A stretch of DNA of 64,000 bases. It comes from Vulcanimicrobiota bacterium (GTDB lineage: Bacteria > Vulcanimicrobiota > Vulcanimicrobiia > Eremiobacterales > Eremiobacteraceae). The position numbers and the translations under genes were made by a program. Under the pieces are notes generated by a model that searched no databases, was not told the origin of the DNA, and saw nothing but the letters and a program-made list of their open reading frames with translations. Below are positions 11,236-34,664 of the stretch, piece after piece. Location of the stretch: the NCBI GenBank assembly GCA_963812135.1, contig CAWETU010000001.1, positions 928,001-992,000 on the forward strand, written 5' to 3'. Each line of letters starts with the position of its first letter. The first letter of the stretch is position 1.

Positions 11236-11813
11236 GTCGCGTCCGCCCCCGAGGTCGCGGAGGTAGCGGTCGGATTTATCCGACCATCCGCGTCGGCCGT
11301 CGCGGTCGAATTTATTTGACCGACTCCCGGATCGGTCTCGACGCCTGACTCGGTGTTCGCCAGATGCTGCGTGTAGGGGTCGCGCACGAGGAGCTTGTCC
11401 TTGCCGAAGACGAGGCGTTCGCGGGTGAAGTCGGCGATGTCGAAGCGCGGCGTCAGCACGATCGCGTCCGTCGGGCACGCCTCTTCGCACCAGCCGCAGA
11501 AGATGCAGCGCAGCATGTCGATCTCGTAGCGGTAGCCGTAGCGCTCGCCCGGCGACACGGGTTTGGCGGGATCGTTCTCCGCGCCGATGACCGTGATGGC
11601 GTTGGCGGGGCACGCGACGGCGCACAGCTCGCAGCCGATGCAACGTTCCATGCCGTCGTCGTATTTGCGCAACTCGTGCACGCCGCGGAAACGCTCCGGA
11701 TGCGGATATGGCTCGCGCGGATAGTCGATCGTCGACTTCTTGCGGAACAGATATTTCAGCGTCGTGCCCAAACCGATGACGATGCCTGCCGCGGCCTTGA
11801 ACGGATTGATCAT
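11232..11813 (-). CDS. nuoI: NADH-quinone oxidoreductase subunit I, with a C-terminal tail containing two REP-derived peptides
   Basis: CIGCELCAVACP and CIFCGWCEEACP 4Fe-4S motifs. ATG 11813 overlaps the nuoH stop. Confidence 0.95.
   Translation of the reverse strand: MINPFKAAAGIVIGLGTTLKYLFRKKSTIDYPREPYPHPERFRGVHELRKYDDGMERCIGCELCAVACPANAITVIGAENDPAKPVSPGERYGYRYEIDMLRCIFCGWCEEACPTDAIVLTPRFDIADFTRERLVFGKDKLLVRDPYTQHLANTESGVETDPGVGQINSTATADADGRINPTATSATSGADAT
11263..11286 (+). repeat. REP-like palindrome family 1, copy A (in nuoI)
   Basis: GTAG CGGTCGGAT TT ATCCGACCA, with a compensatory A-T to G-C pair in the stem. Reads GRINPTAT in nuoI. Confidence 0.85.
11299..11322 (+). repeat. REP-like palindrome family 1, copy B (in nuoI)
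   Basis: GTCG CGGTCGAAT TT ATTTGACCG, 36 nt from copy A. Reads GQINSTAT. Confidence 0.8.
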
Positions 11814-12820
11814 GCGCCCGTCCCCCGCAGCGCGACCAGCGCCGCCGTCACCAGCAGATTGAGCGCCGCGATCGGCAGCAGCACCTTCCAGCCGAATGCC
11901 ATGAGCCGGTCGTAGCGCAGCCGCGGCAGCGTCGCGCGCAGCCAGATGAACGAGAAGAGCAATGCAGCGACCTTGACCAAGAACCAGAAGATCGACAGCC
12001 ACGGGACGACGGAGACGAACGGGCCGTCGCCGCCGCCGAGGAACAGCAGCGTCGCGATCGCCGAGACGGTGATCATGTTGACGTATTCGGCGACGAAAAA
12101 CGTGCCAAAGCGCAAGCTTGAATACTCGGTGTGGAATCCGGCGACCAGCTCGGTCTCTGCTTCGGGCAGGTCGAACGGCGCGCGATTCGTCTCGGCGGTC
12201 GCCGTGATGCCGTAGATGAGGAACCCGATCAGCTGCGGGATGATGAACCAGACGTGATGCGCGCTCTGGGCCGAGACGATGCCCTGCAGATCGGTGGTGC
12301 CGGCAAGGATCAGCACGCCGACGATTGATAGTCCCATCGCGAGCTCGTACGAGATCAACTGCGCGGTCGAACGGATCGCGCCGAGCAGCGACCACTTCGA
12401 TTGCGAAGCCCAACCGCCCAGCGCGATGCCGTAGACGCCGATCGCGCCCATCGCGAGCAGGAACAAGATGCCGACGTTCGGGTTGGCGATCGAGATGGGC
12501 GTGCCGTCCGGGAACGTGCCGAAGGGGATGACCGCGTATGCCATGAGCGCGGTGAGCACCGCGAGCGCCGGCGCGATCTTGTAGATGAACGGGTCGGCGG
12601 TGGCGGGTGTGAGATCTTCTTTAAGGACGAGCTTGACGGCGTCCGCCGCGGGCTGCATCAGACCCCACGGTCCGCACCAGATCGGTCCGACGCGCAGCTG
12701 GAACCACGCGAGCAGCTTGCGCTCGAACAGCATCAGATACGCGAATGACGTCACCACGATGAAGATGAGCAGGCCTGCCTTGATCGCGATGACGATCGCG
12801 AGCGCGAGAGCCGGATTCAC
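11810..12820 (-). CDS. nuoH: NADH-quinone oxidoreductase subunit H
   Basis: ERK..Q.RVGP, AETNRAPFDLPEAETELVAGFHTEYS and LPRLRYDRLM motifs. Confidence 0.97.
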   Translation of the reverse strand: MNPALALAIVIAIKAGLLIFIVVTSFAYLMLFERKLLAWFQLRVGPIWCGPWGLMQPAADAVKLVLKEDLTPATADPFIYKIAPALAVLTALMAYAVIPFGTFPDGTPISIANPNVGILFLLAMGAIGVYGIALGGWASQSKWSLLGAIRSTAQLISYELAMGLSIVGVLILAGTTDLQGIVSAQSAHHVWFIIPQLIGFLIYGITATAETNRAPFDLPEAETELVAGFHTEYSSLRFGTFFVAEYVNMITVSAIATLLFLGGGDGPFVSVVPWLSIFWFLVKVAALLFSFIWLRATLPRLRYDRLMAFGWKVLLPIAALNLLVTAALVALRGTGA

Positions 12821-15195
12821 GCGGTCGCCTCCTCGCGCACGGCCGGCGTCACGATCACGCGACCGGAACCCGACGCGTCGAGCAACCGGTTGACGGGCGC
12901 TTGCGGCATGTCCGCGATGACGAGCACCGAGCCGACCGGGGCACTCGAATCCACGCGCGCGGCGACGGTGATCGAGCCGTTGCTGCCCGAAAGCGTGATC
13001 ATGCGCCCGTCGGCGATGCCGAGCAGCAGCGCGTCATCCTCGTGGAACACGGCGCACGGCGTAGGCCGCATCGGCGCGATACCGGGGTCGTGGGCGGCGG
13101 CACCACCGCCAGCGTAGAGCTTCGGGATCGAAATCACGGTGAACGTCTTGCGCTGAGCGTCGAGCGTGTCGCCGTGCTTGGCCGCCAATGGGGCCACCTT
13201 GGGGCGCGCGAGCGACGCGCTTGCGGGCGCGGCGCGGCGCGCGGCGTCGAGCCGCGCGAAAAGCCAATCCGGGTCGGCGGAGAGCATATCGGCTTTGCCC
13301 ATCGCCTGTGCGATCGACGCCAGGATGGCGGCGTCCGTCGCGACATGCACCGGCGCCTCGACGGCCTGCGCAAACGGTTGTTGCCGGCCTTCGAGGTTCG
13401 TCACGTGGCCGCGCTTTTCGGCGAACGAGGCGGCGGCGAACACGACATCCGCGTACGAAGCGGTCTCCGTCATGAGCTGATCGGCGACCGCGAGAAACGG
13501 AACCGTCTCGAGCGCTTTGCGTGCGAGCGCCCCATCCGGATACGTCAGCGCCGGATTTGCGCCGGCGATGAACAGCGCATCGAGCTTGCCGTCGGCCGCC
13601 GCTTGCAGCATTTCGCCGGTCGTGAGTCCAGGCGTCGCCACCCCGACGTATCCAGGACCAAGATTTGGCACGCAGCCTGCCGCTTCGGCGCCGCGCGAGT
13701 TGCCCTGGCTGCCGACGACGAGGATGCCGGCCGCGCGGCCCTTGGACACCAGCGTCTCGATGAGCCGCTCCAACGCAGCGGCCGCAGCGGTATTGCGTCC
13801 ATTATGGATCGCGACGACTTTGCTCGCGTTCGCCAACGCCGATGTGAGTTCGCCCGTGAATCCGCCGGCCGGCTGCGCGCCTTGCGCGAGCGCGTCGGCG
13901 AGGGACTCCATCAGGCCGCCGATGGCGTCGCTCGTGTGCTCGATGTACTGGAACGGCACGGTGATCTGCGGTTTGAAGGGCCCGACGAAGATGAGCTGTG
14001 CGCCGCGATGCGACACCGCGCGCCGCACGCGCAGGTCGAGGATCGGCGCCTGCTCGGCGGTCACCGCGCCGAAGACCACGATGAGCGATGCGTCGTCGAT
14101 GTCGGTCAGCGTCGCGCCGAAACGTGCCGGCGACGCGAATTTTTGCGAGCGCACGCGGTGATCGATGTTGTTCGTGCCCAGCACGTCGCGGGCCAAGCCT
14201 TGCAGTGCGAACGCTTCTTCATCCGAGAGACGGCCGCCGCCGATCACGCCGACGCGGCCGCTGCGCGCGGCGATCCCGAGTTTCTCGGCGGTCAAGGCCA
14301 CCGCTTCGGCGAATGACGCGGGTTCGAGATCGCCGTCGCGCCGCACGAGAGGCTTGCGCAAGCGCGCGGGTTCGTACATATAATTGAAGGTGTAACGCCC
14401 GCGGTCGCAGATCCATCCGCCGTCGACCTCGGGGTTCTCGCGGGTGAACGTGCGCATGATGTGTCCGAAGCGCGAGTCGATGCGATAGTTGCAGCCGACC
14501 GAGCACTGCGTGCACACTGAATCCGCGTGGCCGAGGTCCCATGGCCGGGCACGGAAGCGATACGCCTTGCTCGTGAGCGCGCCGACCGGACAGATCTCCG
14601 TCGTGTTGCCGGAGAAATACGACGCGTAGTCGCCGCCGTCGATCGTGCCGATCAGCGATTGGTGGCCGCGTTCGACCACGACGAGGTTACGCTCTTGCGC
14701 GATCTCGTCGTCGAAGCGCGTGCAGCGCCGGCATAAAATGCAGCGCTCTTCGTCCAGCACGATCGTCGGGCCGAGGTCGACGCGTTTTGGCTTATGCAGC
14801 TTGGGCTCGGTCAGCCGGCTGGCGCCCGGGCCGTACTCCATCGTGAAGTCTTGCAGATCGCACTCGCCGCCCTTGTCGCAGATCGGGCAATCCAAGGGAT
14901 GATTGAGCAGCAAAAACTCGAGCACGCCGCGACGCGCTTCGGCGACTTTCGGAGACATCGTGTGGACGACCATGCCTTCGGTCACGCGCGTCGCGCACGC
15001 GATCTGCAGCTTGGGCGTCTTCTCGATCTCGACCAGACAGATGCGGCACAGGCCGACCGGTGCCATCTTCGGGTGGTAGCAATACACGGGTACCTGGGTG
15101 CCGAGCGTTTTTGCCGCTTCGACGACCAGCGTGCCATCCGGCACGTTGACCTCTTGGCCGTCGATCAGCAGCTTCACCATCTTCGGTTCGCTCAT
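12817..15195 (-). CDS. nuoG: NADH-quinone oxidoreductase subunit G
   Basis: YCYH, CRIC, HPLDCPICDKGGEC, CILCRRC, CPVGAL and the extra CTQCSVGC..ICDRGR cluster motif. ATG 15195 overlaps the nuoF stop. Confidence 0.95.
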   Translation of the reverse strand: MSEPKMVKLLIDGQEVNVPDGTLVVEAAKTLGTQVPVYCYHPKMAPVGLCRICLVEIEKTPKLQIACATRVTEGMVVHTMSPKVAEARRGVLEFLLLNHPLDCPICDKGGECDLQDFTMEYGPGASRLTEPKLHKPKRVDLGPTIVLDEERCILCRRCTRFDDEIAQERNLVVVERGHQSLIGTIDGGDYASYFSGNTTEICPVGALTSKAYRFRARPWDLGHADSVCTQCSVGCNYRIDSRFGHIMRTFTRENPEVDGGWICDRGRYTFNYMYEPARLRKPLVRRDGDLEPASFAEAVALTAEKLGIAARSGRVGVIGGGRLSDEEAFALQGLARDVLGTNNIDHRVRSQKFASPARFGATLTDIDDASLIVVFGAVTAEQAPILDLRVRRAVSHRGAQLIFVGPFKPQITVPFQYIEHTSDAIGGLMESLADALAQGAQPAGGFTGELTSALANASKVVAIHNGRNTAAAAALERLIETLVSKGRAAGILVVGSQGNSRGAEAAGCVPNLGPGYVGVATPGLTTGEMLQAAADGKLDALFIAGANPALTYPDGALARKALETVPFLAVADQLMTETASYADVVFAAASFAEKRGHVTNLEGRQQPFAQAVEAPVHVATDAAILASIAQAMGKADMLSADPDWLFARLDAARRAAPASASLARPKVAPLAAKHGDTLDAQRKTFTVISIPKLYAGGGAAAHDPGIAPMRPTPCAVFHEDDALLLGIADGRMITLSGSNGSITVAARVDSSAPVGSVLVIADMPQAPVNRLLDASGSGRVIVTPAVREEATA

Positions 15196-16487
15196 GCCAC
15201 ACCCGCCACTGCCGCTTTGAGCGGGCAGCCGCCTTGCGTCACGTGCGCCTTGAACTCGTCGGGGAAGCGGCGTAACACCGACAGCAAGAACGGCATGATC
15301 GAGTCGCCGAGCGGGCACAGGTTCGTGCCGGTCAAGGTGTTGTTGATGACGCCGAGCACGCGCAGGTCTTCATCGGACCCTTCGCCCGCTTCCAGTCGCG
15401 ACACCATGCGCGCGACCCACTGGCCGCCTTCGCGGCACGGCGTGCACTGGCCGCACGATTCGTGCTCGAAGAAACGCGTGAGCGTCTTCGCGCAGCGCAC
15501 CATGCATGCGGTGTCATCCATGACCACGAAGCCGCCCGAACCGAGCATCGTGCGCTTGGCCGCGAGCGAATCGAAGTCGATGCCCACGTCGAGATCTTCC
15601 GCGAACAGCGCCGCGGAGGACGCGCCGCCGGGTTGGAAGGCTTTGAGGGTGCGCTTGGGCAGCAAGCCGCCCGCATATTCCTCGATCAGCTCGCGCGCGG
15701 GGATGCCGAGCGGCACTTCATAGTTGCCGGGCCGGCGGACGTGGCCGCTGACCGACATGATCTTGGGGCCAGGCGATTTCTCGGGCCCGATCGCCGCGAA
15801 CCACGGCGCACCGCGCTCGATGATGTGCTTGACGTAGCCCAGCGTCTCCACGTTGTTGATGACCGTCGGCATGCCGTAGAGTCCGGCGATGGCGGGGAAC
15901 GGAGGCTTGAGGCGCGGCTCGCCGCGCTTGCCCTCGATCGATTCGAGCTGCGCGGTCTCCTCGCCGCAGATGTACGCACCCGCGCCCCGGTGGATCACGA
16001 CGTTCAGGGAGTAATCGGTGCCGAGGATGCGTTCGCCGACGTAGCCGCGCTGCGTCGCCGCGTCGAGCGCCCGGCGGAAGATGCGCGAACCCTCGAGGAA
16101 TTCACCGCGTATATAGATGTAGGCTTGCGTCGAGCCGATGGCATACGCCGCGATGACCAGACCTTCAATGATCTGCAGCGGCGTCTGCTCGAGCAGCATG
16201 CGGTCCTTGAACGTCCCTGGCTCGGCTTCGTCGCAATTGCAGACGAGGTAACGCGGCCGTCCGTCTTTGGGCAAGAAACCCCACTTGCGGCCCGTCGGGA
16301 AGCCGGCGCCGCCGCGCCCGCGCAGGTTCGAAGCCGTGATCTCGGTGGTGACCGACTCTGGCGTCATCTCTTTGAGCGCCTTCTTGAGCCCGGCGAATCC
16401 GCCGTCGCGCTCGTACACGTCGATGTCGGTCAGGTCCAACTGCCCGATGCCCTTCATGAGGACCGGTTCAAATGTCGCCATCGTCAT
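15192..16487 (-). CDS. nuoF: NADH-quinone oxidoreductase subunit F
   Basis: LRGRGGAGFPTG, NCDEAEPGTFKDR, GAGAYICGEET and ESCGQCTPCREG motifs. Confidence 0.97.
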   Translation of the reverse strand: MTMATFEPVLMKGIGQLDLTDIDVYERDGGFAGLKKALKEMTPESVTTEITASNLRGRGGAGFPTGRKWGFLPKDGRPRYLVCNCDEAEPGTFKDRMLLEQTPLQIIEGLVIAAYAIGSTQAYIYIRGEFLEGSRIFRRALDAATQRGYVGERILGTDYSLNVVIHRGAGAYICGEETAQLESIEGKRGEPRLKPPFPAIAGLYGMPTVINNVETLGYVKHIIERGAPWFAAIGPEKSPGPKIMSVSGHVRRPGNYEVPLGIPARELIEEYAGGLLPKRTLKAFQPGGASSAALFAEDLDVGIDFDSLAAKRTMLGSGGFVVMDDTACMVRCAKTLTRFFEHESCGQCTPCREGGQWVARMVSRLEAGEGSDEDLRVLGVINNTLTGTNLCPLGDSIMPFLLSVLRRFPDEFKAHVTQGGCPLKAAVAGVA

Positions 16488-16978
16488 TCGGCCGGCATCG
16501 CCGGTTGCGGCAGTTGCGAGCTCCAAGTGTCGAGCAGCGCGTCAAACGCCGGCGCGGTGACGTCATAGTGGAACTCAAGGTTGTGCTGCAGGCACGGCGC
16601 GCGGTCGCACGCCGCCAAACACTCGACCTCTTCGTAGTAGAACTGCCCGTCGGCCGATGTCTCGAGATGGCCGATGCCGAGGCGGCGCTTGATGTGGTCC
16701 TGCAAGTCCTCGGCGCCGCGCAGCATGCACGACATCGTGCGGCACACCTGGATGATGTGCTTGCCGACCGGCTCCTTGAAGAGCAGCGTATAAAAGGAAG
16801 CGATCGATTCGACCTCGCCCGGGGTGATGCCGACCACCTCGGCTGCGTCGCGCATGGCTTGGGTGGTCACGTAGCCGTCCTGCGCTTGGCAGAACTGCAA
16901 GAACGGGATCAGCGCGGACTGCGGCTTCGGGTAGCGCGCCATGAGCTCGCGCGCGCGCTCGGCGCGTTCGGGCGTCAT
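16484..16978 (-). CDS. nuoE: NADH-quinone oxidoreductase subunit E
   Basis: SFY, VCRTMSC and ECLAACDRAP 2Fe-2S motifs. ATG 16978 overlaps the nuoD stop. Confidence 0.95.
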   Translation of the reverse strand: MTPERAERARELMARYPKPQSALIPFLQFCQAQDGYVTTQAMRDAAEVVGITPGEVESIASFYTLLFKEPVGKHIIQVCRTMSCMLRGAEDLQDHIKRRLGIGHLETSADGQFYYEEVECLAACDRAPCLQHNLEFHYDVTAPAFDALLDTWSSQLPQPAMPAE

Positions 16979-18207
16979 CGGTCGACCTCGCCGAACACCG
17001 GGTCCAAACTGCCGATGATCGCCACCACATCCGCCACGAGGTTGCCCGGCGCCAGCTTGCGCAGCGCTTGGAGGTTGTAGAACGATGGCGGGCGCCAGCG
17101 CACGCGCCACGGCTTGTTGCCGCCTGCGCTCGTGACGTACATCCCGAGCTCGCCGCGCGGGCTCTCCACCGATTGATAGATGTGGCCTTCCGGCACGTTG
17201 AAGCCCGACGACACGAGTTTGAAGTGGTGGATCAGCGCTTCCATCGAGTGTTGGATCTCGGTCTTGGGGGGCGGCAGGATCTTGCGGTCGCTGATCGTGA
17301 CCGGTCCGTCCGGAAATTTTTCGCGCGCTTGCTTGATGATGCGCCACGCTTGATACATCTCGTCGAGCCGCACGACGAAGCGCGAATAGCTGTCGCCGCC
17401 CGTGTGCGTGCAGATGTCGAAATCGTACGTCTCATAACCGCTGTACGGCAGCGCCTTGCGCACGTCGTACGGGATGCCGCTGCCGCGCAGGATCGGTCCG
17501 GTCATGCCCCAATCGATCGCCTCTTGCGGCGTGATCACGCCGACGCCGATCAGACGATCCATGATGATGACGTTCTTCTCGAGGATGGCGCGCATATCGG
17601 TCAGGCGCTCGGGGAAAAGGCCGATGAAGTCGTCCAACTTCGCGAGGAAGCCCTTGGGCACGTCGATGGCGAGGCCGCCGATGCGGAACCAGGACTGATG
17701 CATGCGCGCGCCCGTGACGAATTCCATGATCTCGAGGATGCGCTCGCGCATCTCGAACGCGTACATGAAGATCGATTGCGCGCCGAGATCCATGGCGTGC
17801 GTGCCGAGCTGCACCAAGTGGCTGGCGATGCGCGTGAGCTCGGTGAACATCACGCGCAGCACTTGGGCGCGCGGCGGGATGTTGTCGATGCCGAGCAGCC
17901 GCTCGGCAGCGAGCACGTAACACAGGCTGTTCGAGAGCGGCGCGAGGTAATCGGCGCGATCGACGACGGTGACCGCCTGTTGCCAGAAAAGATTCTCGGC
18001 CTGTTTTTCGATGCCCGTATGAAGGAAGCCGATCTCGGGCTCCGCGGTGACCACCGTCTCGCCGTCGAGCCGCAACATCACCCGCAGCACGCCGTGCGTG
18101 CTCGGATGCTGCGGTCCCATCGACAGGACGAGCGTATCGCGCTCATCGCCCGGCGTGGCCGTCACATCTTTTTCGGCTTCGAACACCGACAGATCGGTGG
18201 TGCTCAT
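16975..18207 (-). CDS. nuoD: NADH-quinone oxidoreductase subunit D
   Basis: [19 protein letters not shown] and C-terminal GEVDR. Confidence 0.97.
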
Positions 18208-18800
18208 TTGGTCACCACCGGCGGCACGGGACCGGGCAGCCCGCCGGGATTGAAGCGACGGTTGAGCCCGCGCAGCGGATAATCTTTACGCAGCGGATAG
18301 CCTTCCCAATCGTCGGGCATCAGAATCCGTCGCAGGTCCGGATGGCCGTCAAACCGGACGCCGAACAGATCCCACACTTCACGCTCCGGCCAGTTCGCGT
18401 TCGGCCACCGGCTGCACAGCGAGGGCACGACCGGATCGATATCGCTCGGGAAGACTCGCAGCCGGAATCTTTCCGGCACCAATGTAGCGGTCGAATTTAT
18501 TCGACCGGTCGCTTCCTTGCGTTCGGCCCTTTGGATGCGCTCGAGCGGGAACGCGAGGAAATGATACGAGATCTCAAAGCGCGGCGTGAGCGGGAGGTGG
18601 TCGGTGCCGCCGATATCGAGCAAATGGTTGAAGCCTGCCGCGCGCGCCAGGTCGACGGCAGCGAGCAGTCCGGCAGCCAAGATCGCGGCTTCGTCCATGT
18701 CGGCGGCTGAGACCGCCTCGACGAACGACGGGCCGAGCGATTGCGCGAGCTGGGCGAGAAGCGCTGAACTCGCAGCGCGTCCGGCGACGGCCTCAGGCAC
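18204..18800 (-). CDS. nuoC: NADH-quinone oxidoreductase subunit C, with a loop insertion containing a REP-derived peptide
   Basis: RFEISYH and [37 protein letters not shown] motifs. Confidence 0.95.
18484..18507 (+). repeat. REP-like palindrome family 1, copy C (in nuoC)
   Basis: GTAG CGGTCGAAT TT ATTCGACCG, a perfect 9-bp stem identical to copy E. Reads GRINSTAT. Confidence 0.9.
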
Positions 18801-19275
18801 GCGCCAGCACGTTGGCCTTGCCGCCGGCTTCGATCTCGCGCCGCAGTTGCATGAGCGCGTAGATCAACGCGTCGGGGCTCGGCGGGCAGCCGGGGACGTA
18901 CACATCGACGGGCAAGATCGAATCGACGCCCGGCAAGATGGCGTAGTTGTCGAAGATGCCGCCGGACGACGCGCATGCGCCCATCGAGATGACCCATTTC
19001 GGATCCGGCATCTGCTCGTAGAGCTGGCGCAGGATGGGCGCCATCTTGTTCGCGACACGCCCGGACACGATCATGAGATCGCTTTGGCGCGGCGACGAGC
19101 GGAAGACCTCCGCGCCGAAGCGCGACGTGTCGTAGCGCGGCGAGACGATGCTCATCATCTCGATCGCGCAGCATGCGAGGCCCATGGTCATCGGCCAGAT
19201 CGCGGACGTCTGCGCCCAGCGCGTGAATTCATCGAGTTTGGTGGTGATGAACGGCTGCTGCGGGCTCATCTCCAT
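18793..19275 (-). CDS. nuoB: NADH-quinone oxidoreductase subunit B
   Basis: [25 protein letters not shown] and [10 protein letters not shown] motifs. The start is ATG 19275 or 19269. Confidence 0.97.
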
Positions 19276-19625
19276 GAGAAACCGCCCTTCTTCCAGACGT
19301 ACGCGTAGCCGATGCCAAGCACGACGATGAACGCGACCATCTCGAGCAATCCGAACGTGCCGAGCTGGCGCAAACGGACGGCCCATGGATAGAACGACGC
19401 CGCTTCGACGTCGAAGATGACGAAGAGCATCGCGACCAAGTAGAAACGCACGGGGAAGCGCCCGACCATCGGCGAGGTCGGGGGCACGCCGCACTCATAC
19501 GGTTCGAGCTTTTCGACCGTCGGGCGCTTCTTGGTGAAAATGCCAGGCACAATAGCGATGAGCGTCGCCACCACGACGGCGACGACGAAATAGATCAGGA
19601 TGGCGGACCAGGCGGATTCGGGCAC
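19266..19625 (-). CDS. nuoA: NADH-quinone oxidoreductase subunit A
   Basis: [19 protein letters not shown] and YVWKKG motifs. AGGGGA ribosome-binding site before the GTG. Confidence 0.96.
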
Positions 19626-19695
19626 GGTTCCCCTGTATGGCCCCGCGCGTTAGCGTGCGCGGGGAAGAATTACGCTTTGCGAGACGTCCGCTGAG

Positions 19696-19715
19696 TTTGT
19701 GAAAATATTCCCAAA
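19696..19715. promoter_or_regulatory. Putative Rex operator upstream of nuoA
   Basis: TTTGTGAA-AATA-TTCCCAAA is one mismatch from the Rex consensus TTGTGAA-W4-TTCACAA and lies about 70 bp upstream of nuoA. Confidence 0.65.
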
Positions 19716-19740
19716 GTCCCCCCGTTCGAACGCCTCGCCC

Positions 19741-19764
19741 CGGTCGAATAAACTCGACCGCTAC
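19741..19764 (-). repeat. REP-like palindrome family 1, copy D (overlaps the cysteine synthase stop codon)
   Basis: Minus strand GTAG CGGTCGAGT TT ATTCGACCG. The TAG of GTAG is the stop codon at 19761-19763. Confidence 0.85.
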
Positions 19765-20762
19765 AAGAACTCGAGGCCGGTGGCGGTGGGCGTCAAGTGG
19801 TTCTCCGCCAGCCACTCTGCGTTGTACAGACGGGACATCGAGCGCGCCCCGCCGTCGCACAAGATGGTGACGACATTGCTCCCGGGAGGGCAGTCCTTAG
19901 CCACGCGTGCGGCGGCGGTCACATTTACGCCGGACGAGCCACCCAAGAACAATCCTTCCTCACGCAACAGGTAGTGCACCATCTCGACCATCGACCGATC
20001 GTCGACGCGTACCGCGTCATCGGCTCGGGCGCCTTTGAAGTTGTCGGTGATCCGCTTGATGCCGATGCCTTCGGCGATCGACTCGCCGACGACGTCGAGC
20101 ATGCCCGCCGTGATGTAGCAATACAGAGAGGAGCCGAGCGGATCGGCGAGCACGCAGCGGATATTCTGATCGCGCTCTTTCAAGTAGGATGAAACGCCGG
20201 CGAACGTGCCGCCCGTCCCCGCCGCGGCGACGAACGCGGCGATCGATCCGCCGTTGTCCGACCAGATTTCAGGTCCCGTCGTCTCGTGGTGCGCGCGCCG
20301 GTTGGCAGGGTTATTGAACTGGTCGGCCCACAACGCGCCGGGAATCGATTGAGCGATGCGCTGCGCCACGTGATAATAGTTGTTCTCGTCCGCGAACGGC
20401 ACTGAGGGCACGATGCGCACGTCGGCGCCGAGGACGCGCAACAGGTCGAACTTCTCGGACGATTGGTCGTCGGGGATGACGATGATCGTGCGATACCCGC
20501 GCGCGTTGCCCAACAACGCCAGCGCGATCCCGGTGTTGCCAGCCGTGCCTTCGACGATTGTTCCGCCCGGCTTGAGCGTGCCCGCCGCCTCGGCGGATTC
20601 GATGATGAATTTCGCCGCGCGGTCCTTGACCGATCCGCCGGGGTTGAGATGTTCGGCCTTGCCGAGGATGTTGCGGCCAAGCGCGTCGGACAGGCGCGGG
20701 ATGCGGACGAGCGGCGTATCGCCGACCGTTGCGAAGAGATCGCGCTTGATGCCGCCCGCCAT
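19761..20762 (-). CDS. Cysteine synthase (PLP-dependent, CysK/CysM family)
   Basis: GKAEHLNPGGSVKDR, EGTAGNTG and GTGGT motifs. Confidence 0.93.
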   Translation of the reverse strand: MAGGIKRDLFATVGDTPLVRIPRLSDALGRNILGKAEHLNPGGSVKDRAAKFIIESAEAAGTLKPGGTIVEGTAGNTGIALALLGNARGYRTIIVIPDDQSSEKFDLLRVLGADVRIVPSVPFADENNYYHVAQRIAQSIPGALWADQFNNPANRRAHHETTGPEIWSDNGGSIAAFVAAAGTGGTFAGVSSYLKERDQNIRCVLADPLGSSLYCYITAGMLDVVGESIAEGIGIKRITDNFKGARADDAVRVDDRSMVEMVHYLLREEGLFLGGSSGVNVTAAARVAKDCPPGSNVVTILCDGGARSMSRLYNAEWLAENHLTPTATGLEFL

Positions 20763-20809
20763 GTCGCCAAAAGGCTACCCACCGGTTGCGCGGAATACCT
20801 GCGACTGCG

Positions 20810-24276: not shown

Positions 24277-24279
24277 CGC

Positions 24280-25893: not shown

Positions 25894-25905
25894 CGCGCTC
25901 CAGGG

Positions 25906-26724: not shown

Positions 26725-26744
26725 GCGGAGATGCCTCCTGTGGG

Positions 26745-26767
26745 CCCGAGCGAAGCTCGGGTACTAC
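26745..26767 (-). repeat. REP-like palindrome family 2, copy upstream of the TonB-family gene
   Basis: Minus strand GTAG-TA-CCCGAGC-TTC-GCTCGGG. Confidence 0.7.
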
Positions 26768-26824
26768 CTTTGAATATCGTCAAAAATGGGGTTCGAGTTT
26801 ACGACCCGCGCGGGACGCGCGTTG

Positions 26825-27991
26825 TTACAGCTGGATGGGTAGTGTGTGCGCCAGCGTCCTGAAGGTGCGCACCCCTGTGGCGAGCGCCCTCTCGTCGAGC
26901 CGGAACTCGGGTGAATGGGTCATCGCCGGATCAGCCACTCCCGCAAATCCGACCCCGAGCCGAAGATAGCAGCCAGGCGCGCGCTGCGCGAAATAGGCGA
27001 AGTCCTCGGCGCCCATGCTCGGTCGAGGAATCGCCTCGACGGTATCGCCTGCGTCGTTCAAGATCGAGACGATGCGCTCGACCAGCGCGGGATCGTTGAT
27101 GACGCTCGGGTAGCCGAACTCGAAGTCGATTTCGTAGGTGGCGCGATGCGCGTCGCAGATCCCCTTGACCATGCGTTCGAGACGCGCCGGTATGCCTTTG
27201 CGCACGTCCTCGTCCAGGCAGCGGATCGTTCCTTCGAGCACGGTCTGATCGGCGATGATGTTGCGCCGGTATCCGCCTCGGATGAGGCCGATCGACATGA
27301 CGACCGATTCCAGGGGGTCGACTTCGCGACTGACGATGCGTTGCACCGCGCCGACGATCTCCGCGGCGATCGGGATGGTGTCCACGGAGCCGTGCGGATA
27401 CGCGCCGTGCCCGCCGCGGCCACGCACGGTGATCGCAAAATCATCGCACGACGCCGACATCGCGCCCGGTTTCGTGGCAAGCGTGCCTGCCAGCAGGAGC
27501 GGTGACACGTGGATCATGACGACCGCGTCGACCTTCGGTGCGTCCATCGCTCCGGCCTCGATCATCGGCAGTGCGCCGCCTGGCCCTTCCTCAGCTGGTT
27601 GAAAGAAGAACTTGATCGTGCCGGCGAGCGTCGCGCGTTCCTGCGCCAGCGACACGGCGGCGCCGAGCAGCATCGCGGTGTGCGCGTCGTGACCGCACGC
27701 ATGCATCACGCCAGGGACTTTCGATGAGAACGGCTCGCCGCTTCGCTCGTCGAGCGGCAGCGCATCCATGTCCGCGCGAAACGCTAACGTCTTGCCAGGC
27801 CGTCCGCCCTTGAGTACGCCGACGATACCGGTCTTCGCGACGCGCGTCGTCTCGATGCCGGCCGCGCGCAGCGTCTTCTCGACGAGCGCGCTGGTGCGTT
27901 CTTCTTCGAAGCCGAGTTCCGGATGCTCGTGGATGCTGCGCCGCCAGCCGACCACATCCTCGAAGACGCGCTCGAGCGCGGCCTCGGTCAT
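26825..27991 (-). CDS. M20 family amidohydrolase
   Basis: HEHPELGFEE, RADMDALP, MHACGHDAH, FQPAEE and MGAEDF motifs. Confidence 0.93.
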   Translation of the reverse strand: MTEAALERVFEDVVGWRRSIHEHPELGFEEERTSALVEKTLRAAGIETTRVAKTGIVGVLKGGRPGKTLAFRADMDALPLDERSGEPFSSKVPGVMHACGHDAHTAMLLGAAVSLAQERATLAGTIKFFFQPAEEGPGGALPMIEAGAMDAPKVDAVVMIHVSPLLLAGTLATKPGAMSASCDDFAITVRGRGGHGAYPHGSVDTIPIAAEIVGAVQRIVSREVDPLESVVMSIGLIRGGYRRNIIADQTVLEGTIRCLDEDVRKGIPARLERMVKGICDAHRATYEIDFEFGYPSVINDPALVERIVSILNDAGDTVEAIPRPSMGAEDFAYFAQRAPGCYLRLGVGFAGVADPAMTHSPEFRLDERALATGVRTFRTLAHTLPIQL

Positions 27992-29316
27992 GCGAACAAC
28001 GGCTCTTTGGATTCGCGCCCTTGCGCCATCGTCAGCTCGATCTGCGCCGCGAGTTTGGGCAGACCGTCGTCGAGGACCTCGCGACCGTTCTCGGTGATCA
28101 GCACGTCGTCTTCGATGCGCACGCCGATGCCTTTGAAGCGCTTGTCGACATCGAGGTCATCGCCGACGTAGAGTCCGGGTTCGATCGTGACGATCATGCC
28201 CGCCTTGAGCTCGCGCCAATCACCTTGCGCGCGATAGAAGCCGACGTCGTGCGTGTCGAAACCCAAGAAATGACCCACGCGGTGGGGCAGGAACGGTTTG
28301 TGCGCGCCGTTCTCGATCACAGCGTCGTTGGATCCTTTGACTAGCCCGAGCTCGCGCAGCCCGTCGATGAGGATGCGTTGCGCGGCGTCGTTGATCTCGC
28401 TGTTGTATTTCACGCCCGGTTTACATTTTTCGATGGCTGCGACGTTGGCGGCGAGCACGATGTCGTAGATGGCGCGCTGCTCCGGCGAGAACGTGCCGGA
28501 GATCGGCCACGTCCGCGTGATGTCGCCGTTGTAATAATCGACTTCGGCGCCTGCGTCGACGAGCACCAAGGCGTCGTCCGGGACCCGATCGCGATTCGCG
28601 GTGTAGTGCAGATAGGTCGTGTTATTGCCGCCCGCGACGATCGAAGGATACGCGTTTGATTCCGCGCCAAGGCTGGTGAAGGTGTAGTCGACGATCGCTT
28701 GGATTTCGTACTCGTGCATCCCAGGCCGTGCGTGGCGCATGGCTGCCAGATGACCGGCCGCCGAGATCTCGACCGCGCGCCGCATGCCCGCGATGTCGGC
28801 AGATGATTTGAACACGCGCAGCTCGTGCAGGATCGGGCTCGGGTCGAGGACATTGATCGCGCCGTGGTCGCCGCGCCGGCGCGCGACACGCGCGTTGACG
28901 ACATGCTCGCGGATGCGCCGCTGGAATTCCTCGCCGCCGCTCCAACCGTAATAGAGGTTATCCGACGAGTCGAGCAGCTCCGGCAGCCGTTTGTCGAGCT
29001 CGTCGATCGGATAAGTCGCGTCGATGTGGAGCGCTTGCGCGGCGCGTTCGACGCCGAGGCGTTTGCCTTCCCAGATCTCGCGATCTCGATCGAGTTGGCG
29101 CAAGAAGAGAACCGATTTGGTCTCTTTGTGATTGGGCGCGAGCACGAGCACGCTGTGCGGCTCGCTAAATCCGCTCAGATAGTAGAAGTCTGAGTCTTGG
29201 CGGTATGGATAATGGCCGTCGTTGGAGCGGATGACTTGTGGCGCGCTTGGAAAAACGGCGACCGCGTCGCCGATGCTCTTGGTGAAGGCGGCGCGCCGCC
29301 GTTCGAATTCGGTCAT
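27988..29316 (-). CDS. pepP: Xaa-Pro aminopeptidase (M24B)
   Basis: YRQDSDFYYL, DAGAE..GDITRT, HFLGFDTHD, TIEPG and GVRIEDD motifs. Confidence 0.93.
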   Translation of the reverse strand: MTEFERRRAAFTKSIGDAVAVFPSAPQVIRSNDGHYPYRQDSDFYYLSGFSEPHSVLVLAPNHKETKSVLFLRQLDRDREIWEGKRLGVERAAQALHIDATYPIDELDKRLPELLDSSDNLYYGWSGGEEFQRRIREHVVNARVARRRGDHGAINVLDPSPILHELRVFKSSADIAGMRRAVEISAAGHLAAMRHARPGMHEYEIQAIVDYTFTSLGAESNAYPSIVAGGNNTTYLHYTANRDRVPDDALVLVDAGAEVDYYNGDITRTWPISGTFSPEQRAIYDIVLAANVAAIEKCKPGVKYNSEINDAAQRILIDGLRELGLVKGSNDAVIENGAHKPFLPHRVGHFLGFDTHDVGFYRAQGDWRELKAGMIVTIEPGLYVGDDLDVDKRFKGIGVRIEDDVLITENGREVLDDGLPKLAAQIELTMAQGRESKEPLFA

Positions 29317-29324
29317 CGTGCTCC

Positions 29325-30164
29325 TTACAAACCGCGCGCTTGGCGCAAGTACTCAACGGTATGACGGATATGCTCGCCGTCGCCGGCGCCCGGCGAGCGG
29401 CGTAGGTAGGTCTCGAGATCCTCGATGGCGCGGTCGTAGCGATGCAGGCGCGCGAACAAAATGCCGCGGTCGCGCAGCTCGGTCGGATCGTCCGGATCGA
29501 TCGCGAGCTGCAATTCGATCGCCGCAAGCGCGGCGACGTAGTTCTTGGCTTGGCTCAGGCTGTTCTTCAAATTGAGCAGCACGCGCTTGACGATGGTGCG
29601 GTGCGAGACCGGCTCGAGGAACTCGTCGCGCCACGTGATGCGCCCGCGATACAGCTTATCCACGAGCGCGACGCACTCGGGCACGTCGAGCACCGCGCCG
29701 CCCTGGAATGGATCGATGAACAAGCGGCTCGACGGGTCGGGAAAGCGGACGACGAAATGCCCCGGCAGACCCACGCCGGCGAGCGTCAAACCGACGCGCC
29801 GCGCCGTCTCCATCAGCACGATCGACAGGGTGATCGGGATGCCGATGCGCCGGTCGAGCACGCTCGAGAGCAAGCTGTTCCCGGGTTCGTAGTACGCGCT
29901 GTGGTTGCCGCGGAAACCGCCCTCGCCGAACAGAGTGCGCAACACGCCGTCGATGCGCGCGTAGGGGTCGCTGGAATTGCCGGCCGCCTTAGCGGCGCGC
30001 GCCGCAAGCGCGTCAAGCTTGCGCGCATAGCGGTCGGGCTCGACGCCGGTATCGAACACCGCGGCTGAAAGCAGGCACGCGGTGTCGAGCGGCAGATCGA
30101 CGCTCTCCTCGTCGCACCGTGCGACAAGATTAGCGAAACGTTGCCCGGGCACTAACGGTCTCAT
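29325..30164 (-). CDS. SirB1 / transglutaminase-like TPR protein
   Basis: FRGN..YY, GIPITLS, GLPGHF, IDPF and ELRDRG motifs. Confidence 0.88.
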   Translation of the reverse strand: MRPLVPGQRFANLVARCDEESVDLPLDTACLLSAAVFDTGVEPDRYARKLDALAARAAKAAGNSSDPYARIDGVLRTLFGEGGFRGNHSAYYEPGNSLLSSVLDRRIGIPITLSIVLMETARRVGLTLAGVGLPGHFVVRFPDPSSRLFIDPFQGGAVLDVPECVALVDKLYRGRITWRDEFLEPVSHRTIVKRVLLNLKNSLSQAKNYVAALAAIELQLAIDPDDPTELRDRGILFARLHRYDRAIEDLETYLRRSPGAGDGEHIRHTVEYLRQARGL

Positions 30165-30240
30165 CGGGAGCGTCCCCTTCTCGGCACCGCGCGCTCGCCC
30201 CTAGCGGGTAGGCGCGCCAGCGAACCAGAAATCGCGTCAC

Positions 30241-31398
30241 ATGCGCGTCGACGCCGATGCTCTGCTCGCGCGGCGAGCGGAATTCCCTATCCTATCGACC
30301 TGCACGTATCTCATCAGCAACTCATTGGGCGCCGTGCCTGCGCGCACGAGGCAGCGCTTGGCGGATTATGCGGAGAGCTGGGCGGTGCGCGGCGTGCTGG
30401 CATGGGATGAATGGCTTGGTGTGGCTCGGGCCGCGGGCGATCTCGTGTCGCGGCTCATCAACGCCGGCCGCGACGAGGTCACACTTTTTCAAAACGTGAC
30501 GATTTGCGAGTCGGTGCTGATCTCGTGCCTCGATTTCTCAGGACGGCGCAACAAGGTCGTGTATTCCGACCTTGAGTTCCCGACGGTCCACTATGTCTGG
30601 CAGGGGCAAACGCAGCGTGGCGCGCGCACCGAAGTGATAAAGAGTCCCAACGGCATACACGCCGACATCAAGGCGCTTTGTGACGCCATCGACGAGACGA
30701 CGATTGCCGTGCCGATCTCGCACGTGCTGTTCCGCTCGAGCGCCATTTGCGACATCGCGCCCATCGTCGAAAAGGCCCACCGCGTGGGCGCGTTCGTGTT
30801 CCTCGACGTGTTCCAATCGATCGGCACCGTGCCGGTCGACGTCCAGGCGCTTGGCGTCGACGCGGTCGTCGGCGGTTGCCTGAAGTGGCTGTGCGGCGGC
30901 CCGGGCGCTGCCTTCTTGTGGGTACGGCCGTCGCTCTACGATCGCCTGAACCCGGCGATGGTCGGCTGGTTCGGTCACAAGCGGCCGTTCGATTTCGATA
31001 TGGGCGCGTTCGAAGGCGCCGACGATGTGTGGCGTTATGCCGGTGGCACGTCGAACGTGCCGGCGCTATACGCAGCGCGCAGCGGGCTGGAGATCATCAA
31101 TGAGGTCGGCGTCGACGCGATACGCACGCGTAGCATCGAGCTGACGTCGCTGCTGGTCGAGCTGGCGCAACACCACGGCCTGTCCGTGCGCTCTCCGTTG
31201 GATGCTGCCCGTCGCGGCGGTCACGTGACGCTTGACCTCCCGAATGCGCAACATGCATGCGATGAAATGATCCGCCGCAGCTTCATGGTCGATTTCCGGC
31301 CGAATGCCGGCATCCGCATCGCCCCGCATTTCTATAACTCACATGACGAGGTCGAGGCCGCCGTGCGCGAGCTGGTGGCGATCCGCGATGGCCACTGA
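30241..31398 (+). CDS. Kynureninase-like class V PLP enzyme
   Basis: YLISNSLG, EFPT, DVFQSIG, GGCLKWLCGGPG, GWFG and RRGGH motifs. Confidence 0.8.
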   Translation: MRVDADALLARRAEFPILSTCTYLISNSLGAVPARTRQRLADYAESWAVRGVLAWDEWLGVARAAGDLVSRLINAGRDEVTLFQNVTICESVLISCLDFSGRRNKVVYSDLEFPTVHYVWQGQTQRGARTEVIKSPNGIHADIKALCDAIDETTIAVPISHVLFRSSAICDIAPIVEKAHRVGAFVFLDVFQSIGTVPVDVQALGVDAVVGGCLKWLCGGPGAAFLWVRPSLYDRLNPAMVGWFGHKRPFDFDMGAFEGADDVWRYAGGTSNVPALYAARSGLEIINEVGVDAIRTRSIELTSLLVELAQHHGLSVRSPLDAARRGGHVTLDLPNAQHACDEMIRRSFMVDFRPNAGIRIAPHFYNSHDEVEAAVRELVAIRDGH

Positions 31399-32659
31399 CG
31401 TCGTCGTCGTCGTTGGCGCAGGCCCAGGCGGCTCGGCGGCGGCGCACTGGCTTGCACGCGCCGGCGCCGACGTCGTGATGCTCGAACGCGCACGCTTCCC
31501 GCGCGACAAGAGCTGCGGCGACGGCGTCACTGCGCACGCAGTCGACATTCTCGCGGATATGGGCGTGCACTTCGACGATTTTCAGGGCAAGGGCGCGCGC
31601 ACGTTCGGCGGCTTGATCGGCGGGCCCAGCGGCGACACGTTTGCGGCCGATCCGCCGCCGCATCCGAGCGGTGCGAAAGTGGAATGCTGGGTCGTGCCGC
31701 GCGCGTTGCTCGACGAGCGCTTGGCGCGGGCAGCGGCGACGGCTGGCGCGGTGCTGCGCGAAGAGACGGCGTTCGCGGGCATGACGCGGCGCGCCGGCGG
31801 ATGGCGCGTTGAATATACCGACGCCTCGGGCGCGGGCACGATCGACTGCCAGCTCGTCATCGGCGCCGACGGCGCGCATTCAGCCGTCGCGAAATCACTC
31901 GGCCTGCAAGAAAATCCGCCGCCGCATCTGGGCTACGCGCTGCGCGGCTACTACGAAGGCGTGCAAGGCTTGAGCGACAAGCTTGAGATCTATTACTATG
32001 ACAAACACACATTGCCGGGGTATGGCTGGATCTTTCCGGCGGGCGACGGGCTCGCGAACGTCGGCATCGGCATCTTCGTCGGCGAGCTGCGCCGCTCGAA
32101 GAAGAAGATGCGCGAACTGCTTGACGAGTTTCTCGCGCATTCGCCGCGCATCGTCGAACGCTGCGCAGGCGCGAAGCCCGTCGGCCGCGCGATCGGCTGG
32201 CCGTTGCCGGTGTCGAGCGCGCACCGGCCGACTGTGTTCGATAATGCGATGCTCGTCGGCGACGCGGCTTCACTGGTGGACCCGCTGACCGGCGAAGGCA
32301 TCTACACCGCGCTCGTGTCAGGCCGTAGCGCTGCCCGCGCGGCGTTGGGAGCGCTGGCGTCGGGCGACGCGTCGCACGCAGCGTTGCGGATCCACGAGCG
32401 CGAATGGCGGGCCGAAGCGGGCGGCTACCTCTCCAGCGGGCGGCTGCTCAAGAATCTTGCGAAGAGCCCGGCGCTGCTCGACCTCATCATCCGCCGTGCG
32501 GCGCAAAGCGAGTACTATGCGAGCCGCGCGATCGGTTACGGCCTCGGGACGCTCGACCGGCGGCGCGCGCTGCGCTCGATCGTCATGAAAGCCATCTTCA
32601 ACCCGTCGTTTTTCAAGGTCCGCAGGCGGGACGAGGCGATGCCAGCTGCGGGCGGTTGA
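31388..32659 (+). CDS. Geranylgeranyl reductase family flavoprotein
   Basis: GAGPGG, FPRDKSCGDG, GADG, GYGWIFP and GDAA..DPLTGEGI motifs. Confidence 0.88.
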   Translation: MATDVVVVVGAGPGGSAAAHWLARAGADVVMLERARFPRDKSCGDGVTAHAVDILADMGVHFDDFQGKGARTFGGLIGGPSGDTFAADPPPHPSGAKVECWVVPRALLDERLARAAATAGAVLREETAFAGMTRRAGGWRVEYTDASGAGTIDCQLVIGADGAHSAVAKSLGLQENPPPHLGYALRGYYEGVQGLSDKLEIYYYDKHTLPGYGWIFPAGDGLANVGIGIFVGELRRSKKKMRELLDEFLAHSPRIVERCAGAKPVGRAIGWPLPVSSAHRPTVFDNAMLVGDAASLVDPLTGEGIYTALVSGRSAARAALGALASGDASHAALRIHEREWRAEAGGYLSSGRLLKNLAKSPALLDLIIRRAAQSEYYASRAIGYGLGTLDRRRALRSIVMKAIFNPSFFKVRRRDEAMPAAGG

Positions 32660-32695
32660 AACTTTTCCTCGAAGGTACCATTAAGGTAGGACGCT

Positions 32696-33130
32696 ATGAC
32701 GAATGAGCCCGCCATGACCAACGACCCCACCCAAGCCCAGCTTCCGCCGCCGCCGGTCATGCCAGTGGAACGGCCATTGCCGGACCGTCTTCAAGCCGAG
32801 GCGCGCACATGGGCGATGCTCTGCCACCTTTCGTCCATCAGCGGCTACATCGGCTTGCCGTTCGGACATTTGATCGGACCGCTCATCGTGTGGCTGGTCA
32901 AGAAGGACCAGTTTCCGCTCGTCGATGACCAGGGTAAGGAATCGCTGAACTTCCAGATCTCGATGACGATCTACGGCGTCGTCGCGCTGATCCTGTCCTT
33001 TTTGCTCATCGGGATCCCATTGCTGGTCCTGATCGCGCTCGGAGACCTCGTGTTCGTGATCATCGCTGCGATCGAGGCGAATAAAGGCGTTCCGTATCGC
33101 TATCCGTTCACGATCCGCTTTTTGACTTAA
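32696..33130 (+). CDS. DUF4870-type membrane protein
   Basis: WAMLCHLS, GPLIVW, GKESLNFQI and YRYP motifs. Confidence 0.85.
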   Translation: MTNEPAMTNDPTQAQLPPPPVMPVERPLPDRLQAEARTWAMLCHLSSISGYIGLPFGHLIGPLIVWLVKKDQFPLVDDQGKESLNFQISMTIYGVVALILSFLLIGIPLLVLIALGDLVFVIIAAIEANKGVPYRYPFTIRFLT

Positions 33131-33842
33131 GAAAGCGTTTCGCGCTCGGGCACAGATCGACGAGCACGCAGCGCGCGCACTCCGGATTGCGCGCGTGACA
33201 GACCTCGCGGCCGTGATGGATCAGCCAGTGATGCGCCTGCGACCACTCTGCCCGCGGAACCACTTTCATCAGCTGACGTTCTGACTGCGCAGGCGTGCGC
33301 GCGCGCGTAAGACCGGTTCGATTCGCGACGCGGAAGACGTGGGTGTCGACCGCGATCGCATCTTGCGCGAATCCGACGGCCAGCACGACGTTGGCGGTCT
33401 TGCGGCCGACACCCGGCAGCTCCAGTAGCTGCTCCATCGTGTTCGGCACTTTGCCGTCGTGGTGTTCCACGATGAGGCGGCTCGCCGCGATGATGTTCTT
33501 GGCTTTGGTGGTGAACAGCCCGCACGTCTTGATGAAAGGTTCAAGGTCCTCAGGCTCCGCCGCTGCCATTGCCTCGGCGGTCGGATAGCGCGCGAAGAGC
33601 GCCGGCGTCACCATGTTCACGCGCGCATCGGTGCATTGCGCCGAGAGTATGACCGCGACGAGCAGTTGGAACGTGTCGCCGTATTCCAGCGCGGTCTCGG
33701 CATGGGCGTACGTCGTGTGCAGGCGCTCCAGGATCGCTGCGTCACGCTGCGCTTTTGTCAGGGCAGGGCGGCGCGCGTCCTTGTCCGGTTGAGCGCGACC
33801 AGCCCGTCGCGTTCGAGATCGAGCAGCAGATCTTCCAACCAC
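33108..33842 (-). CDS. nth: Endonuclease III (start uncertain)
   Basis: LSAQCTD, LPGVGRKTANV, VDTHV and CHARNPECARC..C Fe-S motif. Confidence 0.95.
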   Translation of the reverse strand: MVGRSAARSRTRRAGRAQPDKDARRPALTKAQRDAAILERLHTTYAHAETALEYGDTFQLLVAVILSAQCTDARVNMVTPALFARYPTAEAMAAAEPEDLEPFIKTCGLFTTKAKNIIAASRLIVEHHDGKVPNTMEQLLELPGVGRKTANVVLAVGFAQDAIAVDTHVFRVANRTGLTRARTPAQSERQLMKVVPRAEWSQAHHWLIHHGREVCHARNPECARCVLVDLCPSAKRFLKSKSGS

Positions 33843-34657
33843 GGCAAGTCGCTTTTGCCAAAGCCTACTTTTACCTGCGGTCCGAGGCGCATGAGGTCCA
33901 TACTGCGGGCGTCGACAAGCGCGCGGATGACGCGGCCGCGCTGTTGCCGCCTCGAGCCTTCAAACCGTTCCGTTCGGCCTGTAGCGGTCGAATTTATTCG
34001 ACCGGCGCCCCGACGTTTGAACGCGCACGCATTGCGCAACGGACACTCCGCGCAAGCGGGCTTCGCCCGGCAGAACATCGCGCCGATATCCATCAGCGCG
34101 TGGTTCCACGTCGCCGCATTTCTTGGAAGGACGCCAGCCGCGAGACGCCATGCTGTCGCGTCATCCGCACGGTCGACGCCGAGCAGCGCGCGCGACAGCA
34201 CGCGGCGCACGTTGACGTCAACCGCTGCTTCGCGCGCGCCGAACGCGAAGCTCGCGATCGCGCCTGCGGTGTAGCGCCCGATACCGGGCAGCGATCGCAA
34301 CGCGTCGATTTCGCGCGGCATGCGGCCGCCGTGATGCGCGACGATGTCGCGCGCGCACTGCCAGAGATTTCGCGCGCGGCGATTGTACCCAAGGCCAGAC
34401 CAACAACGCAAAACGTCGCGCAGCGGTGCCTGCGCGAGCGCGCGCGCCCTGGGAAAGCTTTTCAAGAACTCATGGTACTTTGGAATGACGCGAGACACTT
34501 GCGTCTGCTGGAGCATGATCTCCGAGACCAAGATCGCATACGGATCTCGCGTACGTCGCCAGGGCAGGTCGCGCCGATGGCGCCGATACCAGCGCAACAC
34601 GAGTCGCCGTATTGGAGCGGTCGAGTTTACTCGACCGTTCGTAGCTGTCGAATTCAT
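33758..34657 (-). CDS. mutY: A/G-specific adenine glycosylase, short form
   Basis: RDLPWR, SEIMLQQTQV, WSGLGY, LPGIGRYTA, VDVNVRR and an Fe-S Cys motif. The preferred start is ATG 34657 (AAGGG upstream, just after the PhzF stop), and TTG 34687 is the alternative. Confidence 0.92.
   Translation of the reverse strand: MNSTATNGRVNSTAPIRRLVLRWYRRHRRDLPWRRTRDPYAILVSEIMLQQTQVSRVIPKYHEFLKSFPRARALAQAPLRDVLRCWSGLGYNRRARNLWQCARDIVAHHGGRMPREIDALRSLPGIGRYTAGAIASFAFGAREAAVDVNVRRVLSRALLGVDRADDATAWRLAAGVLPRNAATWNHALMDIGAMFCRAKPACAECPLRNACAFKRRGAGRINSTATGRTERFEGSRRQQRGRVIRALVDARSMDLMRLGPQVKVGFGKSDLPWLEDLLLDLERDGLVALNRTRTRAALP
33981..34004 (+). repeat. REP-like palindrome family 1, copy E (in mutY)
   Basis: GTAGCGGTCGAATTTATTCGACCG, identical to copy C. 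Reads GRINSTAT just after the Fe-S motif. Confidence 0.9.
34614..34637 (+). repeat. REP-like palindrome family 1, copy F (mutY N-terminus)
   Basis: GGAG CGGTCGAGT TT ACTCGACCG, with a compensatory A-T to G-C pair. Reads GRVNSTAP. Confidence 0.85.
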
Positions 34658-34664
34658 GCGACCC
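34641..34664 (+). repeat. REP-like palindrome family 1, degenerate copy G (spans the probable mutY start)
   Basis: GTAG CTGTCGAAT TC ATGCGACCC, 27 nt from copy F. Reads GRMNSTAT. Confidence 0.7.

Follow-up and report, generated by a model that had tools for sequence, protein, structure and literature searches.

A GTAG-headed REP family, mainly extragenic, with a preferred reading frame inside core genes of an Eremiobacteraceae genome

The window analysed here is a 64,000-nucleotide stretch (positions 928,001 to 992,000 of contig CAWETU010000001.1, assembly GCA_963812135.1) from a Vulcanimicrobiota soil bacterium, hereafter G000 (2.79 Mb, 6 contigs, 98% complete), which the source names of its closest NuoC homologs place in Ca. 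Eremiobacterota. It contains seven copies of a 24-nt REP element (family 1) in or beside nuoI, nuoC, mutY and a cysteine synthase gene, and two copies of a second REP family. Positions below are those of the window.

11232..11813, minus: nuoI host gene (TIGR01971 and NF004537 over cut-off)
11263..11286, plus: family-1 REP in the C-terminal tail of nuoI, antisense, GRINPTAT
11299..11322, plus: family-1 REP with GTCG head, antisense in the nuoI tail, GQINSTAT; in tandem with the 11263 copy, period 36
18204..18800, minus: nuoC host gene (NCBIfam, PDB relatives, NuoC homologs)
18484..18507, plus: family-1 REP matching the consensus exactly, antisense, at residues 99–106 of NuoC in a variable loop
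19741..19764, minus: family-1 REP; the cysteine synthase gene 19761–20762 takes its TAG stop from the head
33758..34687, minus: mutY host gene, longest frame, start uncertain (NCBIfam and PDB relatives)
33981..34004, plus: exact family-1 REP, antisense, in the linker that follows the MutY catalytic domain
34614..34637, plus: family-1 REP headed GGAG, at the N-terminus of mutY, antisense, GRVNSTAP
34641..34664, plus: decayed family-1 REP abutting the stop of the upstream gene and containing a possible mutY ATG
38158..38182, plus: family-2 REP, sense, in frame near the C-terminus of gene 36379–38208, VEPERSSGA
42783..42807, minus: decayed family-2 REP, antisense, in frame within gene 42059–44479, TPKLRLGAT

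The window also holds a candidate fluoride riboswitch at 53688–53767 on the plus strand (RF01734, just above the gathering score), which precedes gene 53796–55019.

Sequence comparison across the 64-kb window found a family-1 copy at each of the seven positions proposed in the initial annotation, where none is expected by chance: 100 shuffles of the window gave no match, and three base shuffles of the 2.37 Mb contig gave no hit with ≤5 mismatches. The 18484 and 33981 copies match the consensus exactly, and the others carry one (19741–19764), two (11299), three (11263 and 34614) or four (34641) mismatches. Translations confirmed that the six gene-associated copies lie antisense in one frame and encode the reported peptides; the tandem spacings of 36 and 27 nt and the openness of four of the six frames were likewise borne out. 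The description of the element as GTAG-headed fits five of the seven copies, but not those at 11299 (GTCG) and 34614 (GGAG), and the proposed hairpin of 9 bp plus 2 nt is replaced by a fold with a 4-nt loop (hairpin z about −3). The element has no match in Rfam. NCBIfam and PDB relatives agree with nuoI, nuoC and mutY as hosts, though only NuoI scores above a curated cut-off.

Comparison with orthologs revealed empty sites at the NuoC, NuoI and MutY loci, so that the peptide is not ancestral there. The 11263 copy, the second in the nuoI tail, is missing in five congeners, among which the 11299 copy is common to G006 only; the 34614 copy is missing in G005, G006 and G002. The best PDB hits to MutY stop at residue 223–227, before the 33981 insert. 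Orthologs of mutY begin immediately behind the upstream gene, where the 34614/34641 pair sits here, and an ATG within the 34641 copy, just behind the upstream stop, may be the mutY start, in which case GRMNSTAT may be only partly translated. The three mutY copies are all antisense in the longest frame, as first described, but the 34641 copy possibly straddles the start. At the same junction, genome G001 (locus L041) has an inverted pair of its other REP family.

The NuoC copy is identical in G000, G005 and G006. In the NuoC model its peptide forms a coil between strands 75–83 and 110–117 and is the least confident block of the core. Loop length varies from 8 to 37 residues among the homologs that could be parsed (93 of 121), 13 of which carry a GRINST-type peptide, and near-identical backbones bear GRMNSTAT, VGVELIRP (another frame) or PELRSGTT (family 2). 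Two further loop peptides in the set P0012–P0022, RAQERGTT and RALERGS, resemble additional REP families. Host proteins are functionally unrelated enzymes, and in a Pfam scan covering 55 of 61 host orthologs, a hand count placed 27 of the 36 G005 host sites that have a Pfam hit beyond the limits of the best domain match. Together with the NuoC coil and the nuoI and mutY tails, this upholds the earlier placement of coding copies in loops and termini.

Genome-wide, a weight matrix detected 211 copies in G000 and none in the reversed genome. The 208 copies above a stricter score were classified using our own gene caller and homology to G005, of which almost the whole genome was covered, and ambiguous copies near starts were excluded from frame counts. 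These 208 comprise 101 intergenic copies, 37 that overlap a stop codon, 18 close to a called start and 52 coding copies in 39 genes, a few coding copies being tallied as intergenic because of frame breaks in the assembly; the corresponding G005 numbers (n = 183) are 92, 25, 14 and 52. One AddA-like gene (C1 2,157,000–2,161,500) shows two frame changes relative to its intact G005 ortholog, probably assembly errors, one of them directly ahead of a triple REP array. Contigs C3 and C4 (20 kb each) have ends 89–99% identical to C1 1.929–1.949 Mb and are strain variants or duplicates.

The family had been proposed chiefly to colonise genes. Instead, 156 of the 208 copies lie outside genes or at a gene edge, as expected of REP elements, and density is about 23-fold lower in coding than in non-coding DNA (0.021 vs 0.48 copies per kb). 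Most copies are single (164/208, 79%), with 38 in tandem and 6 with an inverted partner; 57 are exact. Inverted partners within 200 bp are equally few in G005 (6/183), so most copies are not in the inverted doublets that define REPINs. The head is GTAG in 162 of 198 strong G000 copies and GGAG in 120 of 177 G005 copies. Among six congeners, three are rich in the element (101, 139 and 124 copies at ≤2 mismatches), two have one copy and one (72% complete) has none; none of the 34 other genomes sampled has a match.

The initial annotation held that a single frame is used exclusively. GRINSTAT is indeed the commonest reading of the 52 coding copies (33), but 19 read otherwise: VAVEFIRP (6), a stop-mutated frame (5, in one gene), RSNKFDRY (4), SGRIYST (3) and one other. 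Counted over independent sites and the four open frames, GRINSTAT accounts for 28 of 41 in G000 (p = 7e-9), and it exceeds the other open antisense frame by 28:4 in G000 and 23:1 in G005. In the latter genome it takes 23 of 47 sites and MERSNLFDR 9, because the GGAG head opens a fifth frame. Pooling G000, G005 and 135 metagenome loci (80 sites, 70 genes) gave 44, 15, 12, 11, 4 and 2 by frame, and motif counts in the called proteomes agree with the preference (20/25 in G000, 23/42 in G005). The GRINSTAT frame leads in both chromosome sectors described below (12/16 and 18/32).

With real flanks, the open frames are 64–93% stop-free (47–58% for the fifth frame of G005), and stop avoidance was rejected as the cause, in line with the earlier claim of a bias beyond it. 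Base composition of host targets was rejected as well, as it predicts the opposite of what is observed. A general antisense insertion bias was also discarded: where neighbouring genes share an orientation, the copies between them are more often sense (41:23 and 38:17), a comparison confounded with the strand polarity of the sectors.

The second GTAG REP family has 48 copies in G000 and none in the control, is about 25 nt long, in many cases with another hairpin-like stretch behind it, and is nearly absent from G005. Of its 20 coding copies, 16 read sense as V-x-PERSSG and 4 antisense as TPELRSG, a strand-frame contrast with family 1 (p = 0.0003) which makes frame preference family-specific. 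In both families the winning frames are those without aromatic or Cys residues, a post hoc observation. Across 14 frames, frame share falls with the count of aromatic plus Cys residues (rho −0.78, post hoc, on non-independent points) and rises with a scale of insertion propensity built on 1820 ortholog pairs (rho 0.55). Hydropathy is no predictor of frame share (rho −0.19).

Anchoring in G005 succeeded for 157 of the 208 G000 copies: 64 are shared, 6 lie in opposite orientation and 87 sites are empty. At 59 unique shared sites, the head base in one genome does not depend on that in the other (T in G000 and G in G005 at 40 of 58; p = 0.6), and there is partial inheritance of inner variants (p about 0.003). 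Immediate flanks of shared sites are 38–43% identical, vs 27% when shuffled and about 80% further out, and metagenome relatives at 90–95% flank identity keep the length at only 4 of 29 shared sites. Metagenome alignments include tandem gains adjoining a resident copy, and net gains are often about 30–36 nt with variable flanks among the alignments listed. We infer insertion beside resident copies followed by collapse. Capture of donor flanks was also considered, and yielded no convincing pairs with both flanks alike save in duplicated regions. At one candidate site (C5 ~279,780; also L307 and L324), three alleles with flanks 92–98% identical differ in orientation and linker beside a terminator-like hairpin.

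No RAYT was found in G000 by PF01797, by a family-specific six-frame profile or by an alignment search lacking a positive control, nor in the congeners G005 and G006 or in 135 metagenome loci containing the element. Y1 genes do occur in 14 of 24 genomes of the family (a tally that includes the unpublished G016), all four tested pass the NF047646 RAYT cut-off, and most RAYT loci are flanked by GTAG/GGAG hairpins. The base before the head is T in 134 of 198 G000 copies and at 52 of 75 positions at RAYT loci. In the sister genus g4, the 26-nt hairpins flanking RAYTs differ from the family-1 element mainly by one extra base pair; g4 genomes (G009, G018, G024) hold 243–472 copies of this REP and one or two RAYT genes each, and 26-nt and 24-nt sister variants flank NF047646-passing RAYTs in other genera. 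The GTAG head, the copy number and these near-identical hairpins support the proposed RAYT-type assignment; a RAYT flanked by such sister hairpins is seen in g4, and none was found in G000, G005 or G006. Judged by sequence, family 1 belongs to the RAYT-type REPs but is an orphan, its mobiliser being presumed.

We consider it the most probable reading, at roughly 0.65, that a RAYT-spread REP is mostly purged from genes, that copies in aromatic-free frames survive in loops, and that the peptide is a tolerated by-product. Counts, frames, sites and the turnover pattern were computed, and we infer RAYT action, a selective filter, turnover steps and translation. A short REP resembling group 3, spread by a RAYT absent from the assembly, would insert with a few variable flanking bases, often beside a resident copy. 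Most genic insertions would be purged, leaving those that keep the frame in linkers, tails and already variable loops; survival would favour frames without aromatic residues or Cys, namely GRINSTA(T/P) in family 1 and V-x-PERSSG and TPELRSG in family 2. At occupied sites, turnover would proceed through replacement or through tandem gain with collapse. On this reading, purifying selection would retain in-frame, aromatic-free inserts in permissive loops. Two counts from G005 speak against it: the near-identical peptides MERSNLFDR and RSNKFDRS differ 9:1, a gap for which a peptide filter alone does not account, and the GRINSTAT frame takes just 8 of 20 sites found in G005 only.

The frame bias could instead be mechanical or historical, with insertion chemistry or a junction kept at ancestral sites fixing the phase and little selection on the peptide. 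The favoured head phases (sense 0, antisense 2) set the conserved T at the third codon position in both families, 25 of 31 multi-source sites retain their frame, and a NuoC sister has PELRSGTT for GRMNSTAT with flanks and phase alike. Sites found only in G000 nevertheless remain biased (17/24), targets with a host T or A in third position are expected least often (share 0.16), and the two families pick opposite strands; we consider this explanation unlikely. A role for the hairpin itself in DNA or mRNA (pausing, stability, protein binding), with the frame reflecting what the protein allows, appears very improbable. Compensatory changes (28 of 72 in G000 coding GRINSTAT copies), persisting rare codons and the inner variants retained at orthologous sites would suit it, but intergenic copies carry compensatory variants just as often, active subfamilies would be expected to spread such variants when copied, and more than half of the anchored sites are empty in G005.

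That GRINSTAT was selected as a tag or modification site on many proteins seems scarcely probable, and selection on the peptide, one of two options in the initial annotation, is not supported. The peptide does occur in core proteins of three congeners and recurs among the NuoC homologs, with the NuoC copy unchanged in three genomes. It has, however, been gained or lost at least six times on the NuoC tree, near-identical backbones bear other frames or families, 6 of the 31 multi-source sites mix frames, and the T-to-P change tracks the head variant of the genome. Loops at orthologous positions differ in content: some have GRINSTAT, some another frame or another REP family, and some no insert. 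Hosts share no function, and synonymous changes show no excess in a test of low power (8:11 coding vs 15:21 intergenic). Contigs from sequencing runs, mostly short or mixed, listed no RNA piece spanning a coding copy and yielded no usable signal of expression or alleles. The peptide itself is probably unimportant, and we favour its survival as a by-product of RAYT-driven spread.

The strand polarity of the copies is unexplained by this favoured reading. On C1, 107 copies lie on the minus and 10 on the plus strand between 0.99 and 2.37 Mb, and 25 and 36, respectively, between 0 and 0.99 Mb, sector limits that were set after inspecting G000. The syntenic sector of the collinear G005 genome (C3, C4 and part of C5) shows 105:10, and 70:8 at sites not matched as shared; family 2 shows 23:3 in the same sector. 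Polarity persists where 67% of genes are on the plus strand (28:3 minus to plus) and where 33% are (66:6). Gene strand switches near 1.55 Mb, dnaA lies at 0.31 Mb and the turning points of gene-linked word skew are near 0.30 and 1.53 Mb, so the one-strand sector (~1.4 Mb, about half the chromosome) seems to span the likely terminus; origin and terminus are estimates rather than mapped points, the parS pattern and KOPS having located neither. Lagging-strand targeting like that of IS200/IS605 would switch orientation between replichores, which is not seen in the 28:3 and 66:6 counts, and in its simple form does not predict a sector spanning the terminus. A RAYT of G001 (L010, G001:C3) with its own, different 26-nt REP maps to C1 1,000,865, near the sector edge and about 9 kb past the window, at a site that is unoccupied in both G000 and G005; the position may be a coincidence, since the RAYTs found in other genera map elsewhere.

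A more speculative proposal, which we regard as possible though doubtful, is that these REPs are single hairpins that retarget their own sites, swap families in loops and go in from or onto one fixed DNA strand over half the chromosome regardless of replichore. If so, orientation would be a fossil record of an undescribed one-stranded DNA source starting near 1.0 Mb, where the empty counterpart of the G001 RAYT site lies, for which one-way chromosome transfer or strongly asymmetric replication would be candidates. For the question of how REPs spread in vivo, this genus offers hundreds of natural insertions as empty, filled, inverted and swapped alleles, a sister genus holding cognate-like RAYTs, and a polarity over half the chromosome for any model to explain. 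Taken as a natural insertion scan, the coding copies also point out permissive loops, among others in complex I, CarB, PurL, DnaE and L4.

The RPE-1 element of Rickettsia is much longer than the family-1 REP. Such long elements had been named as a precedent for in-frame coding insertion; nearer ones are the short intragenic GTAG REPs of Di Nocera, De Gregorio and Rocco (2013, PMC3733652), who tabulated in-frame copies in core genes. Their entries include 70 Opitutus terrae rows (among them a complex I subunit, PurL and E2) and a CGTC REP in Rickettsia NuoC, and the paper already describes stop codons supplied by GTAG and offers a neutral loop/linker explanation. All seven GTAG-18 rows of its table start VGPALA, so that by our own reading a one-frame pattern is visible there. 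The inserts it describes are over half dimers or groups, with head-to-tail dimers rare, whereas single copies prevail here, with 38 in tandem and 6 inverted-partnered. RPE-1, as cited in that paper, is likewise inserted in frame in functional genes, but unlike family 1 has no GTAG head. The sections of PMC3733652 drawn on here do not analyse frame bias, ortholog turnover or strand polarity, nor do they name Eremiobacterota among the phyla. Partial displacement of older REP variants by newer ones is suggested in a portion of PMC3686654, so the idea of turnover is not wholly new. The literature searched, mainly open-access, held nothing on point for REP frame bias, Eremiobacter with REP or RAYT, concerted change at orthologous REP loci or REP strand polarity; turnover at orthologous sites and polarity over 1.4 Mb are apparently unpublished.

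Group 3 TnpA-REP/REP systems, as far as described in the consulted part of Corneloup et al. (2021, PMC8266576), likewise have a short perfect palindrome straight after GTAG, and the TTTA loop of Marinomonas Mb is identical to the loop here. Family 1 differs from that group in having no cognate enzyme in the assembly, a frequent GGAG head, and A more often than C two bases before the head. Pseudomonas REPINs are similarly RAYT-linked hairpins in hundreds of copies, but in the account of Bertels and Rainey (2011, PMC3116915), in the portion used, 61% are doublets and singlets are seen as remnants, in contrast to the 79% singlets here, with 57 exact copies. The coding GRINSTAT copies are a real, biased example of a known intragenic REP kind, and what sets the G000 REPs apart is their singlet habit, their apparent in-place swaps and their half-chromosome polarity.
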